This document shows positions 24,914-36,272 of a DNA stretch of 64,000 nt, piece by piece. Position 1 is the first letter of the stretch. Each line of letters starts with the position of its first letter. The DNA comes from Nitrospiraceae bacterium (GTDB lineage Bacteria; Nitrospirota; Thermodesulfovibrionia; UBA6902), in contig QZJG01000057.1 of assembly GCA_003599275.1 (NCBI GenBank), forward strand, positions 6,556 to 70,555, written 5' to 3'. Under the pieces are notes generated by a model. It searched no databases. It was not told the origin of the DNA and was given only the letters and a program-made list of their open reading frames with translations. The position numbers and the translations under genes were made by a program.

Positions 24914-25993
24914 TTATAAAATCAGCATAGCATCGCCGTATGAAAAAAACCTGTACCCGGTGCTCTGTGCCCCGGTATAGACGTCTTTCAGAAGCTCAAG
25001 CCCGGCAAAGGCGGAGGCGAGCATCACCGGTGTCGACATAGGCTGGTGAAAGTTTGTGACGAGGGCGTCAATGATTTTAAATCTGTAACCGGGGTAGATG
25101 AATATCGATGCTGTCCCGGGACCGGAGGTAACCCCATTTTTCGTAGGGGCAACCCTCTGTGGTTGCCCTTGTATTGGGCGGGTACAGGGACCTGCCCCTG
25201 CCGCCGACTCAAGCGCCCGTGTGGCGGTAGTGCCGACTGCGATCACCCTTCTCCCTTCGGCCTTCGCACGATTGACCGCATAGGCCGCGGCTTCGGGTAT
25301 CTCAAAGAATTCTTCGTCCATCCTGTGCTCACTTATGTCCGTGACAGTCACGGGCTTAAACGTGCCGTAACCTACGTAAAGGGTGATCGTCTTGATCTCC
25401 ACTTCTTTGTCCCTTATGAGACTCAGGAGTCCCTCCGTAAAGTGCAGGCCCGCCGTGGGCGCTGCAACAGCCCCTTCTTTTTTTGAATAGACTGTCTGGT
25501 AATGTTCGCGGTCTGCCCGGGTGGATTCTCTTTTTATATAAGGAGGCAGGGGCATTACGCCGATTCGGTTTATTACATCTTTGATATTGGTGTTAAGCGT
25601 ACCTGGAGAGTTAATGTCAAATACTACCTTTGCCATGGTCCCGCTCAACCGGGACACCTTTGCAGTGATATCTCTTTCAATGATGACCTCGCCCTCATGT
25701 ATTCCCTTGACGAGCGCCTCATAGGTGTTTTTCCCAAGCTCTTTCAGGAGCGTTATCTCAGCCTTGCCCCCGGAAGGTTTAATGCCGTAAAGCCGGACCG
25801 GCGTCACCCTGACGTCATTGAGGATGAGCACGTCTCCGGGCCTGAAATAGTCGATGATGTCTCTGAAAAACCTGTGCTCAAGCTTTCCTGCTTGCCTGTC
25901 GAGTATAAGCAGTCTTGAGGAATCTCTCTCCGGCAGGGGGTGCTGCGCTATATTTTCTTGTGACAACTGATAATCGAAATCGGAAAGCTTCAT
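24914..25993 (-). CDS. queA: S-adenosylmethionine:tRNA ribosyltransferase-isomerase
   Basis: I recognise MKLSDFDY.L....IAQ.P...RD.SRLL, GLHFT, VGTT..R.LES, IFIYPGY.F...DAL.TNFH.P.S and the FSYGDAM end. Confidence 0.93.
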   Translation of the reverse strand: MKLSDFDYQLSQENIAQHPLPERDSSRLLILDRQAGKLEHRFFRDIIDYFRPGDVLILNDVRVTPVRLYGIKPSGGKAEITLLKELGKNTYEALVKGIHEGEVIIERDITAKVSRLSGTMAKVVFDINSPGTLNTNIKDVINRIGVMPLPPYIKRESTRADREHYQTVYSKKEGAVAAPTAGLHFTEGLLSLIRDKEVEIKTITLYVGYGTFKPVTVTDISEHRMDEEFFEIPEAAAYAVNRAKAEGRRVIAVGTTATRALESAAGAGPCTRPIQGQPQRVAPTKNGVTSGPGTASIFIYPGYRFKIIDALVTNFHQPMSTPVMLASAFAGLELLKDVYTGAQSTGYRFFSYGDAMLIL

Positions 25994-25997
25994 AACC

Positions 25998-27125
25998 TTA
26001 TGGTATATTGCGGGAACTTAACTCCTCAGTATTCTTTATCGTTGTGCCGGGGTAAAAGTGTTCGAGTATTTCCCTGTAATTTCTCCCCTCTTTTGCCATT
26101 TCAAGCGCGCCCCACTGGCTAAGTCCAACGCCGTGGCCATAACCTTTCCCGTCAAAGATAATCTCCGTATCGGTCTTTTTGATTGAAAAGTCGGTGCTGG
26201 GCAATTCCTTGTATCCAAGCGCTCTCCGGAGCTCCGTCGCGATCACTTCCTTCACTTCATTGGTTTCGGTAAGGAGCTTGAGCGTCCGTGCGCGGCCAGT
26301 TGCCGTATAAGAGGCAATATATATGTCCTTAAGTCCGGTTATGCCGAGGGCCCTGCTGATTTCCTCAGGCGAAAAACGCCTCTGCCAGCTCTCGTAAGGG
26401 GCGTTCTTGCAATTGCACTCCACTGACTTGAGATAAGGGAAACTTTCCTTCCAGACCTCTTCGGGAAGCTCTGTCCTGCCTTCACACGTCGCGTGATAAA
26501 AGGCCTTTACCGGGTCCCTTCCGTACATCAGTATCTCTCCTTTTGTAGCGTTCACCGCCCTTTTAACCGCAGGCTCGACATCCTCGCCCTCCTTATAAAG
26601 CTGATGAAGCACGCTTGACGTCAGATGGAACCGGTCCCCTGAATTGATGTTTTTGTAAAGCAAAGCATAAGTCCTCGATATGACTGCCTGCGCCTTCATG
26701 GCCTCTATCTCCCAATCCTTGCCCAGCTCCGAGGCAACAACCCCCTCGATATACTTCTCAAAGGGCAGGTTATTAATGACATGAAGTCCGTTTTTGTCCC
26801 GCAGGATTTCAAACGAGCCCGAATAAGATTGACCGCTAAAAAAAATCTTGCCCGTTAACCCTTCGACTTTCTCCGCATCTGCCGAAGGTAATGGTTGGCC
26901 GGGGGATTCGAGCATGAGGACCTTGATGGTGTCGTCGGCAAAAGTTACAACTGCGGAAAGGGAAGACAGGACCAGCGTTGCAGTCATTGCGAGGACCCGA
27001 AGGGTCCGTGGCAATCTGGCACGGACCGCCATGTTACACAAAGCAATGAATCTTGCGAGATTGCTTCGGTCGTATCGACCTCGCAATGACAGCTCTCCGG
27101 CAAAGGGATTGCAATAATTTGTCAT
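25998..27125 (-). CDS. SpoIID/LytB domain protein; start uncertain (27125 or 26987)
   Basis: The SpoIID core is present (AQAVISRTYAL, FYHATCEGRTE, GHGVGLSQWGA). Residues 13-48 of the track ORF are a translated GTCATTGCGAG-family repeat. MTATLVLSSLSAVVTFA (ATG at 26987) would be a normal signal peptide. Confidence 0.85.
   Translation of the reverse strand: MTNYCNPFAGELSLRGRYDRSNLARFIALCNMAVRARLPRTLRVLAMTATLVLSSLSAVVTFADDTIKVLMLESPGQPLPSADAEKVEGLTGKIFFSGQSYSGSFEILRDKNGLHVINNLPFEKYIEGVVASELGKDWEIEAMKAQAVISRTYALLYKNINSGDRFHLTSSVLHQLYKEGEDVEPAVKRAVNATKGEILMYGRDPVKAFYHATCEGRTELPEEVWKESFPYLKSVECNCKNAPYESWQRRFSPEEISRALGITGLKDIYIASYTATGRARTLKLLTETNEVKEVIATELRRALGYKELPSTDFSIKKTDTEIIFDGKGYGHGVGLSQWGALEMAKEGRNYREILEHFYPGTTIKNTEELSSRNIP
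26983..27090. repeat. Palindromic repeat, GTCATTGCGAG family, copy 3, inside the 5' end of the spoIID ORF
   Basis: The sequence is GTCATTGCGAGGACCCGAAGGGTCCGTGGCAATC...GAGATTGCTTCGGTCGTATCGACCTCGCAATGAC. Confidence 0.9.
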
Positions 27126-27128
27126 ATG

Positions 27129-27344
27129 TTACTTCCTTCCCAAAAAATAAAATATCAGACTCAGGATTATGCTCAGTAGAATACTCGTCGCCAGGGGAAA
27201 ATAGAAGGTAAAGTTCTTTCTCTGGATAACGATATCACCAGGAAGCTTTCCCCCAAAAGGAATGTTCCTGAACAAAAGCAGAAAAGCGCCGATGGCAGCG
27301 ATTATGAGACCCGTTACAAGTAGAAATTTTCCTATATCCGACAT
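27129..27344 (-). CDS. DUF2905-like small membrane protein
   Basis: The sequence MSDIGKFLLVTGLIIAAIGAFLLLF...GKLPGDI..... has two TM helices. I chose the ATG at 27344, just after the queH stop. Confidence 0.7.
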   Translation of the reverse strand: MSDIGKFLLVTGLIIAAIGAFLLLFRNIPFGGKLPGDIVIQRKNFTFYFPLATSILLSIILSLIFYFLGRK

Positions 27345-27352
27345 AGTCTCAT

Positions 27353-27997
27353 TTACTCCCTTGTTCTCCTGCTCAGTTCTTTGGCCTTTACCTCCTCCTC
27401 TCTTTCCTGTCTGCTGTAAACGCACCCGCAATACTTTTGTCTGTAAAGGCCGAGTTCTTTCGAAAGGGCTATCGCGTCCCTGAAATGCGGCCTGAAGTCC
27501 TTCTCGTAGAAAGCGACCTTATGCTTTTCAGAGAGCTCCTTACCGGTAGTTACAATCCGGTCATAGTCCTGATAAGGGCTGATGAGCAGCGTTGTAGAAA
27601 AGGCATCAAAGCCCTCATCACTTGCCGACCTGGCGGTCTTTTCAAGTCTGAGCCGGTAGCATGATTTACACCGTTCGGGGAAAGGAGGTGCATTGTCATT
27701 GCGAGCCGTAGGCGAAGCAATCACATTCTCAGGAGATTGCTTCGTCGTTTCACTCCTCGCAATGACATATCGGACATGTTCAAAATATTCTTCCGGCTTG
27801 TATTCATTCTCATAAATCATTTCAACATGCCATATGTCAGACAGTTTTTTCAGAGAGTTAAGCCTCAATTGATACTCTTCATGCGGGTGAATATTGGGGT
27901 TATACCAAAAGCCGGTGAAGTCGTGCCCGTCTGAACGCGACAGTTTAATGGGGTAAAGGGCACAATTGCCGCAACATATGTGGAAAAGGATTTTCAT
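27353..27997 (-). CDS. queH: Epoxyqueuosine reductase QueH (DUF208), carrying a 24-codon in-frame repeat insertion
   Basis: It has the N-terminal HICCGNC motif, NIHP..EY, and ERC.SCY.LRLE.TA. Codons VIARSETTKQSPENVIASPTARND correspond exactly to repeat copy 4. Confidence 0.85.
   Translation of the reverse strand: MKILFHICCGNCALYPIKLSRSDGHDFTGFWYNPNIHPHEEYQLRLNSLKKLSDIWHVEMIYENEYKPEEYFEHVRYVIARSETTKQSPENVIASPTARNDNAPPFPERCKSCYRLRLEKTARSASDEGFDAFSTTLLISPYQDYDRIVTTGKELSEKHKVAFYEKDFRPHFRDAIALSKELGLYRQKYCGCVYSRQEREEEVKAKELSRRTRE
27695..27766. repeat. Palindromic repeat, GTCATTGCGAG family, copy 4 (72 bp, inside queH)
   Basis: The sequence is GTCATTGCGAGCCGTAGGCGAAGCAATCACATTCTCAGGAGATTGCTTCGTCGTTTCACTCCTCGCAATGAC. 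Its length is a multiple of 3 and it has no stop codon in the queH frame. Confidence 0.9.
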
Positions 27998-28021
27998 GGT
28001 TGATTACATATACATGGTACT

Positions 28022-28158
28022 GTCATTGCGAGCAGGTCCCTCGCTTCGTCATTGCGGGCCAAAGGCGAATCAAGCTCTTTTTATTGCTCGGGATAAACTC
28101 CGCAATCTCAACCTGCTTTCAAAGATTGCTTCGGGGACTTTTGTCCCCTCGCAATGAC
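28022..28158. repeat. Palindromic repeat, GTCATTGCGAG family, copy 5 (composite, two left arms)
   Basis: GTCATTGCGAG sits at 28022, GTCATTGCGGG at 28048, and the right arm ends in CCCCTCGCAATGAC at 28158. It lies between queH and ruvB. Confidence 0.9.
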
Positions 28159-28183
28159 ATTTGCAAGCAGCCTTCTTTTAAAC

Positions 28184-29200
28184 TCAAAACAAATCTTCGC
28201 CTTTCTTTAACCCGAAATGCTCATACGCCCGTTTCGTTGCGACCCTGCCCCTCGGCGTCCTTTCGAGGAACCCTTCCTGCAAAAGGAACGGCTCATACAC
28301 GTCCTCGATCGTGTCCCTTTCTTCCCTTATCGAAGCGGCAAGCGTCTCAAGCCCGACCGGGCCGCCGCTGTATTTTTCTATAATCGCGAGAAGGAGTTTC
28401 CTGTCCATCTCATCGAAACCCATAATATCGACGTCCATTGCGTGAAGGGCTTCCTTTGTAATTCCCAGTTCAATCACCCCCGTGCCTTTTACCTGCGCAA
28501 AATCCCTTGTGCGCCGGAGAAGGCGGTTTGCTATCCTCGGCGTCCCCCTTGACCTTCCGGCGATCTCGGCTGCCGCATCGCCTTTGATCTCCGAATTCAG
28601 AATTATTGCAGAACGAAGAAGTATCCGCTCGAGGTCTTTGGGCACATAAAAATCCAGTCGGTTAATTATTCCAAACCGGTCTCTCAACGGTGAGGTCAGC
28701 AGGCCGGTCCTCGTTGTAGCGCCGATTAACGTAAATCGGGGCAGGTTCAATTTAAGAGACCGGGCGCTCGGTCCCTGTCCTATAATGATATCAAGCTGAT
28801 AATCCTCCATTGCGGGGTAGAGGATTTCTTCCGCCATCCTCGGGAGCCTGTGGATCTCATCAATGAAGAGGATGTCTTTTTCGCCAAGGTTCGTGAGTAT
28901 GGCCGCGAGGTCCCCCGGCCTCTCAAGCACCGGACCGGAAGTCACCTTAATCTCCGCCCCGATTTCAAGAGCGATTATGTGGGCCAGTGTTGTCTTGCCA
29001 AGACCCGGAGGCCCGCAGAACAGAACGTGATCAAGCGCCTCGTTCCGCTGCTTCGCAGCCTGAATGAAGACTTTGAGGTTCTCTTTAATCTTGTCCTGTC
29101 CGACAAAGTCATCAAATGTCCTCGGTCTTACGCTCAGCTCAAAGTTTATGTCGTCCGGGATGACTTCGGGTGCAATGCTTCTTTGCGGTATGTCTTTCAT
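28184..29200 (-). CDS. ruvB: Holliday junction branch migration helicase RuvB
   Basis: Walker [12 protein letters not shown] and the [14 protein letters not shown] and RFG motifs are present. The ATG is only 5 nt from the repeat arm at 29206. Confidence 0.97.
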
Positions 29201-29205
29201 GGATT

Positions 29206-29565
29206 GTCATTGCGAGGGGACGAAGTCACCGAAGCAATCTCATAAGGTTTCATACAAATCATTCCACTCAGGATTTAATTTATTAATTATTGCAATCTTT
29301 TTAGCCCTTGATCCAGCCTTGATTTGTTTTTCTCTAACAATAGCATTCTCAACATCTCTACAAATTTCATAGAAAACCAATTTATTAATATTGTATCTTT
29401 TGGTAAAGCCTTCAACTATTTTTTCTTTATGCTCACAAGCCCTTCTCTTTAAGTCGTTGGTTATGCCGGTGTATATTACGTTATGATCCTTATTTGTCAT
29501 TAAATAAATATAGTATTGTTTTTCTCTCATTGAGATTGCTTCGTCGCTTCGCTCCTCGCAATGAC
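29206..29565. mobile_element. GTCATTGCGAG-family element (copy 6) with a GIY-YIG nuclease ORF between its arms
   Basis: The left arm is GTCATTGCGAGGGGACGAAGTCACCGAAGCAATCTCA (29206-29242). The right arm is TGAGATTGCTTCGTCGCTTCGCTCCTCGCAATGAC (29531-29565). The outer 12 nt and inner 12 nt are perfectly complementary. The ORF fills the loop. Confidence 0.7.
29240..29530 (-). CDS. Small stand-alone GIY-YIG (URI-domain) nuclease family protein
   Basis: The sequence is KQYYIYLMTNKDHNVIYTGITNDLKRRACEHK...GFTKRYNINKLVFYE...A..REKQIK......K...I...NPEW.DL. This is the GIY...YIG pattern with conserved R and E residues and resembles COG2827/UPF0213. Confidence 0.85.
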   Translation of the reverse strand: MREKQYYIYLMTNKDHNVIYTGITNDLKRRACEHKEKIVEGFTKRYNINKLVFYEICRDVENAIVREKQIKAGSRAKKIAIINKLNPEWNDLYETL

Positions 29566-29571
29566 AGCTAT

Positions 29572-30159
29572 TTACTTATCCGTCAGATATTTTAATGCTT
29601 CCCGAATTATAACTTCAATAGTGGTTACGCCGTTTTTAACGGCTTTCTCGACTGCCTTTTCAGATGGCGGTTTTTTATAACCGAGATTAATAAGGGCTGA
29701 TACAGCGTCTTCGGCAGCGCTTTTCTCTCGTGAAGAAAACGCACCCACGGCATTCAGGGCAGGCAGTTTACCTTTGAGCTCGAGGACGAGCCTTGCCGAG
29801 GTCTTCTGTCCGAGCCCGGGGATGGTAGAGAGAAGTGAAACGTCTCCGCTGTCTATCGCCTCAATAAATCTCTGCACATGCATCCCGGACAGGATAGCGA
29901 GGCCGAGCTTGGGCCCTACGCCGTTGATCCCGAGAAGGACAGTGAATACCTTCCGTTCTTCTTCCGTTAAGAACCCGAAAAGCTGAAGCGCGTCTTCTCT
30001 TACGTGCGTGTAGGTGTGAAGGAATACGGTTTCGCCCTGTTCGGGGATATCACAAAGGCTGCACAGAGGGACGCATACATGATACCCGACACCGTTGACG
30101 TCTACGATTACGCCCTCGGGTTTTTTGCTGAGGATTATGCCTTTAAGAGATGCAATCAT
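29572..30159 (-). CDS. ruvA: Holliday junction DNA-binding protein RuvA
   Basis: The MIASLKG N-terminus is followed by HhH motifs (LLGINGVGPKLGLAILS and IPGLGQKTSARLVLELK) and a C-terminal domain III. Confidence 0.93.
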   Translation of the reverse strand: MIASLKGIILSKKPEGVIVDVNGVGYHVCVPLCSLCDIPEQGETVFLHTYTHVREDALQLFGFLTEEERKVFTVLLGINGVGPKLGLAILSGMHVQRFIEAIDSGDVSLLSTIPGLGQKTSARLVLELKGKLPALNAVGAFSSREKSAAEDAVSALINLGYKKPPSEKAVEKAVKNGVTTIEVIIREALKYLTDK

Positions 30160-36214: not shown

Positions 36215-36272
36215 GTCATTCCGGCTTGTCCGGAATCCTTATAAAAGAAGATTCCGGACAAGCCGGAATGAC
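36215..36272. repeat. Palindromic repeat, GTCATTCCGGC family (perfect 23-nt arms)
   Basis: The sequence is GTCATTCCGGCTTGTCCGGAATC-cttataaaagaa-GATTCCGGACAAGCCGGAATGAC. Confidence 0.9.

Follow-up and report, generated by a model that had tools for sequence, protein, structure and literature searches.

A TGTC-tagged hairpin pair, very probably inserted in frame into a tolerant loop of queH, in a Nitrospirota bacterium

Hairpin repeats of the kind discussed here are an already published phenomenon, known from dimers of CGTC/TGTC-tagged REPs (repetitive extragenic palindromes), including RPE-4 and RPE-6 (Rickettsia palindromic elements), and from Ssn/SRM repeats. CGTC-tagged REPs carry a tag that is often TGTC, their stem starts with AT and they occur mostly as dimers (Di Nocera, De Gregorio & Rocco 2013; PMC3733652). 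The superfamily includes dRS3 of Neisseria as well as RPE-6 and RPE-4 of R. conorii, aberrant loops were described for CGTC-1 of Bradyrhizobium, dimers inside genes encode 20-30 amino acids, often in repair genes such as uvrA, and no dedicated transposase was found (PMC3733652). Ssn proteins are small GIY-YIG proteins that are flanked by NTS/SRM sequences and cut single-stranded DNA (ssDNA) beside a hairpin; their hairpin-gene-hairpin layout looks like an insertion sequence, and in Neisseria NTS/Ssn pairs modulate the transformation of flanked genes (Chenal et al. 2025; PMC11893778). Here we analyse a 72-nt element (28 + 12 + 32 nt) at positions 27695-27766 of a 64,000-nt stretch (the window; contig QZJG01000057.1 of assembly GCA_003599275.1) from a Nitrospiraceae bacterium. 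The element lies within queH, and the Nitrospirota assembly comprises 3.05 Mb in 74 contigs with 47.6% G+C and is 88.6% complete. We consider it very probable that the element is a gene-less inverted pair of TGTC-tagged hairpin units which was inserted in frame into a tolerant loop of a functional queH.

The element consists of two inverted units of the form (T)GTCATTGCGAG..GAAGCAATC, which lie 12 nt apart with their tags pointing outward. The plus strand reads GTCATTGCGAGCCGTAGGCGAAGCAATC / ACATTCTCAGGA / GATTGCTTCGTCGTTTCACTCCTCGCAATGAC, while queH occupies the minus strand, and the element encodes QueH residues 78-101, VIARSETTKQSPENVIASPTARND, between ...EYFEHVRY and NAPPFPERCKSCY. That it forms a 24-codon insert which leaves the reading frame unbroken, as proposed by the first-pass annotation, is borne out by the sequence and by the open reading frame (ORF) of 214 amino acids, and the cysteine pair said to follow closely is indeed the CxxC of C110 and C113. 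The same annotation called the element a complete palindromic repeat; the palindrome is real, nested and imperfect, with unpaired stuffers between its arms. The outer arms are perfect over 11 bp, or 12 bp counting the flanking T/A, and the inner arms over 10 bp (CGAAGCAATC/GATTGCTTCG). Folded as RNA, the element reaches -35.5 kcal/mol (z = -4.7), and none of 200 shuffled sequences was as stable. Three of its six reading frames are open in the queH copy: the one used is hydrophilic (VIAR...ARND; grand average of hydropathy, GRAVY, -0.78), whereas the open alternative on the opposite strand, SLR...LAM, is hydrophobic (GRAVY +1.24). The tryptic peptides predicted for the insert region are QSPENVIASPTAR and NDNAPPFPER.

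Both units belong to a repeat family that is abundant in this genome. Its units run from GTCATTGCGAG to CGAAGCAATC and enclose a small hairpin or stuffer that varies; each has an unpaired GTC tag, the stem ATTGC/GCAAT and, beyond an internal loop, an inner stem-loop of variable sequence. The window holds 25 copies of the terminal 11-mer (at most one mismatch), whereas 1.2 would be expected, and no shuffle reached 25. Genome-wide we counted 219 termini and 136 units of 26-37 nt each, about 130 of which belong to some 65 inverted pairs. Termini are 4-fold denser on this contig than in the genome as a whole (window excess p = 1e-11), and 14 of the 26 on the contig lie within 5 kb of ssn, a small nuclease gene discussed below. 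The 32-mer of the second unit of the queH element is 100% identical to two other units of the same contig (C5 20372 and, on the minus strand, C5 49664). No direct repeat flanks any copy; what is conserved is a T at position -1 (57/62) and an A at position +1 (55/62), and two independent 135-bp composite copies lose their similarity exactly at GTC and at GAC+A. A classical miniature inverted-repeat transposable element was rejected, as the inverted ends are present but no target-site duplication was found at any copy. A literature search with the repeat sequence returned unrelated primer matches only.

The family is heterogeneous. An 86-bp subfamily (C1:15928, C3:56933, C6:54989, C59:8486, C65:13968 and inverted copies) has constant outside flanks, tcggttttcagt ... 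agcccaaatact, and is thus embedded in a larger repeated element, and a subfamily of 76-77 bp shares the flanks cttgaattacct ... aac(g/t)tt(t/c)(c/t)atgt. In addition, the genome holds a second hairpin type, GTCATTCC[CG]G...GGAATC (for example at window positions 36215-36272), with 144 matches versus 158 of the ATTGC type. This second type is close to the Neisseria NTS; the assembly has one Ssn-like gene and none belonging to the second type.

The gene that hosts the element is an otherwise ordinary queH. Its match to Pfam PF02677 scores 191 bits (cut-off 23.5) and is interrupted by the element, with profile positions 1-81 on one side and 82-175 on the other, which agrees with the earlier description of the flanks as common QueH sequence. 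A phmmer alignment to QueH of T. maritima (7LC5) breaks at the same place. The AlphaFold2 model has a mean predicted local distance difference test score (pLDDT) of 77, and its top Foldseek matches are again T. maritima QueH (7LC7/7LC5; target-normalised template modelling score 0.80). All 55 columns that are invariant across 30 QueH orthologues are kept, among them the seven cysteines of the motifs CCxxC, CxxC and CGC (C8, C9, C12, C110, C113, C190, C192). NCBIfam provided no family for QueH or for the GIY-YIG protein beyond a sub-threshold intron-endonuclease match. With one PF02677 match in the assembly queH is single-copy, and the second intact queH that might have marked this one as a pseudogene was not found in the 88.6%-complete assembly; neither was queG (TIGR00276). 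The gene queA, whose product makes epoxyqueuosine, the substrate reduced by QueH, lies in the same gene string. Because queG is absent from the assembly, queA is in the same string and all conserved residues are kept, queH with its insert is probably functional, as judged from these sequence features.

Comparison with orthologues points to an insertion rather than to ancestral sequence. Four orthologues of the same genus (G001, G003, G006, G010) have 14-19 amino acids at the respective loop versus 41 in this QueH; G006, for example, reads EEFFEHV-SPSPERC where this QueH reads EEYFEHVRY[24 aa]NAPPFPERC. Without the 24 residues the protein would measure 190 amino acids, which is the modal size of the shortest orthologues. 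The ATTGC family itself is patchy among the relatives, ranging from 0 to 127 units, and a homologous segment at this position, which would speak for ancestry, is absent from the QueH orthologues of the genomes that lack the family.

The insertion site is a loop of variable length, predicted to be disordered, which joins helix 68-82 to the helix bearing the CxxC iron-sulfur ligands. Most of the insert is modelled as disordered, with pLDDT values below 50 for residues 86-100, and helix 68-82 is prolonged by the first five of the added residues; in T. maritima QueH the equivalent loop comprises residues 68-84. In 120 QueH homologues, 49-137 amino acids separate the NPNI motif from the RC that directly precedes the CxxC pair, the loop itself measures 14 to about 100 residues in orthologues, and repeat-type peptides occupy it in 15 of the 120. 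At the DNA level the occupants are of three kinds. In genomes G004, G007, G008 and G009 it is another, strongly palindromic family, AAAATCTCCCC...CCCCTCTTT..AAAGAGGGG...GGGGGGATTTT, which is read there as PLFQRGE..PPLTKGGxGGF; the CCCCTCTTT..AAAGAGGGG hairpin core has 30-93 sites in these four genomes and 2-7 in G000, G001, G003 and G006, the genomes checked in which this family is absent from the loop. In genome G026, which has 127 ATTGC units, a member of the ATTGC family lies about 10 residues further upstream in this loop, which represents an independent insertion event, and its QueH has grown to 271 amino acids with further repeats nested within the loop insert. Other short hairpins lie in the QueH loop of G016 and G029. 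The occupant of the loop thus tracks the repeat family that is abundant in each genome, which fits opportunistic insertion filtered by selection.

The queH copy is not alone. Five further pairs lie deep within genes whose Pfam domains resume beyond the insert, which with queH makes six in-frame copies in real genes and confirms the repeated occurrence that the first-pass annotation had suggested. Measured from GTC to GAC, 5 of these 6 elements have a length divisible by three, as do 18 of the 59 pairs between genes (p = 0.018). Of the four 72-bp copies, three lie within genes (p = 0.002), and each of the six intragenic copies is read in a frame that ends ...ARND. These figures reveal a filter by selection. 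Beyond this genome, a scan of one genome per species detected the same ATTGC pair in at least 120 species, namely in Alphaproteobacteria (many Bradyrhizobium, sphingomonads, Micavibrio and a Rickettsiales metagenome-assembled genome, MAG), Gammaproteobacteria, Chloroflexota, Patescibacteria, Planctomycetota, Bacteroidota and other lineages. In two low-GC Gammaproteobacteria MAGs such pairs lie in frame in UvrA (87 bp, L078:2835-2921) and in the GATase domain of the GMP synthase GuaA (78 bp, L072:4466-4543), both read in a VIA...PRND frame. Long ORFs around copies in the high-GC L047, L048, L097 and L144 were dismissed as spurious on account of their composition-biased translations. As a side observation, PurL of the present genome also holds an in-frame ...SPLSKGGDRGV..., the signature of a second palindromic family (CCCCC..GGGGG type), and the P-type ATPase contains a stretch GSRGKGQGARIKGQGSRGGEGG that looks repeat-derived; several repeat families supply protein segments in this genome.

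The larger counterpart of the queH element lies 1.4 kb upstream of it, where a GIY-YIG gene exactly fills the loop of a unit pair. PF01541 covers residues 5-78 of its 96-aa product, and a search of the PDB with this protein gave only a weak match to UPF0213 BH0048 (E = 0.01). Since the same two units bracket the GIY-YIG gene, the queH element is the gene-less miniature of a unit-ssn-unit module (Table 1). Among 30 genomes of relatives compared for the nuclease and the units, homologues of the nuclease with 64-72% identity are found in G026, G025 and G016, each bracketed by ATTGC units. The homologues of G004 and G009 (56-57% identity) are bracketed by ATTCT/AGAAT stems and those of G028 and G011 (49% identity) by ATTCC/GGAAT stems. 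All bracketing hairpins keep the GTCAT...AATC frame, and the stem changes are compensating and follow the protein clade. Furthermore, the four genomes that contain a close Ssn homologue all belong to the five in which 32 or more exact units were counted (hypergeometric p = 1.6e-4). An Ssn-like nuclease may have taken part in spreading the hairpins. A RAYT as mobiliser was rejected, as the sole PF01797 Y1 gene (C74:3259-3588) has no ATTGC units within 1.5 kb. Genome G020 deserves separate mention, since it contains 13 matches to the Ssn-like protein, many of them truncated at contig ends or with stop codons, a pattern suggesting that nuclease modules recently multiplied and decayed.

Table 1. 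Coordinates of the queH element, its host gene and related features (window positions unless a contig is given).
Feature	Position	Strand	Remarks
72-bp inverted pair of hairpin units	27695..27766		translated as QueH residues 78-101
Hairpin unit A, 28 nt: GTCATTGCGAG-CCGTAGG-CGAAGCAATC	27695..27722	+	T at 27694 precedes; fits 136-copy half-unit pattern
12-nt spacer (loop of the pair)	27723..27734		same slot holds the nuclease gene in the ssn module
Hairpin unit B, 32 nt on minus strand: GTCATTGCGAGGAGTGAAACGACGAAGCAATC	27735..27766	-	sequence
queH, 214 aa, stop included	27353..27997	-	only PF02677 gene of the genome; Pfam 191 bits; AlphaFold2 match
Single-domain GIY-YIG gene, 96 aa, Ssn-like, between ruvA and ruvB	29240..29530	-	PF01541, 60 bits; only copy of the genome
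Hairpin unit abutting the GIY-YIG stop codon	29206..29239	+	sequence
Inverted hairpin unit, 3 nt beyond the GIY-YIG ATG (29528-29530)	29534..29565	-	sequence
Cluster of same-family units	28022..28158		queH-ruvB spacer
108-bp same-family pair	26983..27090		5' end of SpoIID-like gene downstream of queH
queA	24917..25993	-	TIGR00113, 377 bits, C5:31472-32548; same strand and gene string as queH
P-type ATPase	C2:74331-77213		in-frame element, 72 bp
PurL	C19:13936-18111		in-frame element, 72 bp
GT2 glycosyltransferase			in-frame element, 135-bp composite
CbiE/CbiT (linker)			in-frame element, 135-bp composite
PriA			in-frame element, 88 bp

If compared with the described systems, the family resembles CGTC-tagged REPs in several respects, a likeness that, including the one to RPE-4/6, was judged by the published description. 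The tag is unpaired and reads TGTC in 124 of 136 units here, while CGTC prevails in other phyla with 143/208 (69%); every unit starts its stem with AT (GTC-AT-TGC ... GCA-AT-C); inverted dimers prevail and are found in genes, uvrA included; and exact copies occur in hosts listed for these REPs, namely Bradyrhizobium, Micavibrio and sphingomonads (PMC3733652). In contrast to the 8-9 bp stem and 4-5 nt loop of CGTC-tagged REPs, the present units have a 5-bp ATTGC stem, an internal loop and a variable inner hairpin, and the CCA tail is replaced by TCA/TCT in this genome and by CAG/CAT in the other phyla. Nitrospirota are not among the five phyla listed for CGTC-tagged REPs (PMC3733652). The first-pass annotation had compared the insert to the Rickettsia palindromic elements while regarding the repeat as unrelated to them. 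The analogy is apt, as selfish hairpin DNA appears to be tolerated in frame inside an apparently functional queH; the supposed unrelatedness did not hold, since the layout is that of CGTC/TGTC-tagged REPs, which include RPE-4 and RPE-6. RPE-1, according to the summary given in PMC10969869 (Ogata et al. 2000), measures ~100-150 bp and is confined to Rickettsia, and nearly half of the RPEs in three families are stated there to be intragenic. As far as this account goes, the present family is like RPE-1 in that palindromes lie in frame in unrelated housekeeping genes and the added peptides are judged fold-compatible, and unlike it in that only 6 of 65 pairs are intragenic here and the ATTGC family spans many phyla.

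The likeness to the Ssn/SRM system concerns the module as a whole: a single-domain GIY-YIG gene of ~95 codons lies between inverted GTCAT...AATC hairpins, a layout repeated in G026, G025 and G016, and the hairpins are high-copy, locally clustered and vary in sequence with the nuclease clade. The 96-aa protein is Ssn-like by domain, size and layout, and by its layout it may belong to the published system. A comparable arrangement is reportedly found in REPINs with their RAYT (Bertels & Rainey 2011; Nunvar et al. 2010), in which an enzyme gene lies between two inverted hairpins while gene-less doublets are scattered through the genome. The present family shares the bracketed enzyme gene and the scattered gene-less inverted doublets; it differs by a GTC instead of a GTAG tag and by a GIY-YIG enzyme instead of an HUH/Y1 transposase. 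Membership in REPIN/RAYT was consequently rejected, given the GTC tag and a Y1 gene on contig C74 without nearby units.

Taken together, we favor the following scenario. A copy of the gene-less pair would have been inserted directly after codon 77 of queH, at a T^A step and without target duplication. Because the element measures 72 bp, entered in codon phase 0 and met a length-variable, disordered loop, the frame would have survived: 72 bp from GTC to GAC add whole codons, and phase 0 would lead to the stop-free hydrophilic frame being read. QueH would thereby gain a floppy loop of 24 residues and most likely stay active. Purifying selection would act as a filter, such that of many insertions only those in frame and in a loop persist.

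Several observations weigh against this scenario or parts of it. A search of 5.8 billion proteins found no QueH above about 66% identity and the nearest QueH sequences overall are only 63-70% identical, and because these nearest relatives are so distant, the insertion was compared at the protein and codon level only. Accordingly, the clean 24-residue insertion that the earlier annotation anticipated from an orthologue alignment stands at the protein level, while the exact empty DNA site was not found in the collections searched. The element would measure 74 bp instead of 72 bp if the flanking T and A belong to it rather than to the target, and the PriA copy with its 88 bp (90 bp with T and A) breaks the GTC-to-GAC rule. 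Since the assembly is fragmented (74 contigs, 88.6% complete), a second queH or a queG could be missing from it. Reduction of epoxyqueuosine to queuosine (oQ to Q) is not essential, so an intact frame is no proof of activity; moreover, both the translation of the insert and the activity of the enzyme are inferred from the assembled sequence. With respect to the nuclease, the units do not match the SRM string HGTCWYN(0-2)YYVSBRHN(0-5)WNVSBRGN(0-2)RNCYNB, which has 39 matches in the genome, all of the GTCATTCCCGC type and none of them ATTGC units. Finally, G006, G029 and G019 comprise 83, 30 and 23 exact ATTGC units and no detectable Ssn homologue, thus the nuclease is not needed to keep the repeats. 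In these three genomes, either the nuclease disappeared once the units had multiplied or the assemblies fail to include it.

Three other explanations were weighed against an insertion that left queH functional. The insertion might have inactivated QueH, in which case the gene would be a young pseudogene with a still open frame and the cell would make do with epoxyqueuosine-tRNA or with precursor salvage. Queuosine is dispensable in laboratory bacteria, the insert lies 9 residues before the cluster-binding C110, and the complete identity of unit B to two other copies suggests a recent event that left little time for decay. However, none of the 55 invariant positions was lost, in orthologues the loop accommodates anything from 14 to about 100 residues, queA was kept near queH while queG was not found, and the essential genes priA and purL hold the same inserts, which makes us regard an inactivated QueH as unlikely. 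A slightly smaller chance is given to co-option, by which the 24 residues would provide a useful loop, for instance for binding of tRNA or a partner, or the hairpin would regulate the gene or control recombination or transformation via the nuclease. The strength of the hairpin (-35.5 kcal/mol), the clustering of units around the ruvAB-queH-queA string and the modulation of transformation by NTS/Ssn pairs in Neisseria (PMC11893778) could be read in this way. Against it, disorder is predicted for the 24-aa insert, whose net charge is 0, the loop of relatives is taken up by different and unrelated repeat families or, in many of them, by none, no loop sequence is conserved, and neither a terminator-like site on the coding strand of the element nor an Rfam match to the element was found.

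An assembly or binning artefact, by which a repeat copy was misjoined into queH, is conceivable in an assembly of 74 contigs that is rich in this very repeat. We consider it very improbable though: the 72 bp are shorter than ordinary reads, a misjoin is not expected to keep the frame and both QueH halves in order, and independent assemblies show such in-frame inserts in QueH, UvrA and GuaA. Consequently, an in-frame insertion of a gene-less hairpin pair into a tolerant loop of a functional queH is the explanation that we prefer.

The surroundings of queH are shaped by the same repeats as well. The minus-strand gene string at 24917-30159 comprises ruvA, ssn, ruvB, queH, a small membrane ORF (27129-27431), a SpoIID-like gene and queA, and hairpin units occupy the ruvA-ruvB and ruvB-queH spacers, the 5' end of the SpoIID-like gene and the interior of queH. 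Apart from ssn, this string resembles the ruvAB-queA-tgt neighbourhood of Bacillus subtilis. The pair at the 5' end of the SpoIID-like gene is read in the other open frame (LSLRG...RVLAMT) and forms the N-terminus of the SpoIID-like ORF (25998-27125, minus strand). An ATG within the spacer of this pair gives MAVRARLPRTLRVLAMTATLVLSSLSAVVTFA, which looks like a signal peptide; if this internal ATG is used, the charged start of the SpoIID-like protein and its start codon would come from the repeat.

Within the literature searched, the phylum and the enzyme are new for an otherwise published phenomenon. The locus makes a modest addition with the recurrent invasion of the QueH loop by different families, the co-variation of hairpin stem and nuclease clade, and copies that cluster near the nuclease gene. 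Taken alone, the insert is another case of a protein that tolerates selfish hairpin DNA and is relevant chiefly to annotation, where the 24 additional residues should be regarded as repeat-derived and not as a feature of QueH. An autonomous-looking module and gene-less copies lie within 2 kb of each other, and filled and empty sites can be compared across the genus. One might tentatively speculate, as a possibility we would not yet bet on, that the unit-ssn-unit modules are autonomous mobile elements driven by the ~95-aa GIY-YIG ssDNA nuclease and that gene-less pairs are their miniature derivatives, inserting at T^A without duplication, preferentially near the master copy, and repeatedly seeding variable surface loops at the same permissive sites of housekeeping enzymes. 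The QueH loop ahead of the CxxC helix has been invaded by at least three repeat families independently of each other. If true, such modules would fill the place of the 'missing transposase' in CGTC-tagged REPs and in the Rickettsia RPE-4/6. With one enzyme loop colonised independently by different families, in proportion to their genomic abundance, the locus offers a natural test bed for whether Ssn-type nucleases spread hairpins and for how much such repeats contribute to the evolution of loop length.

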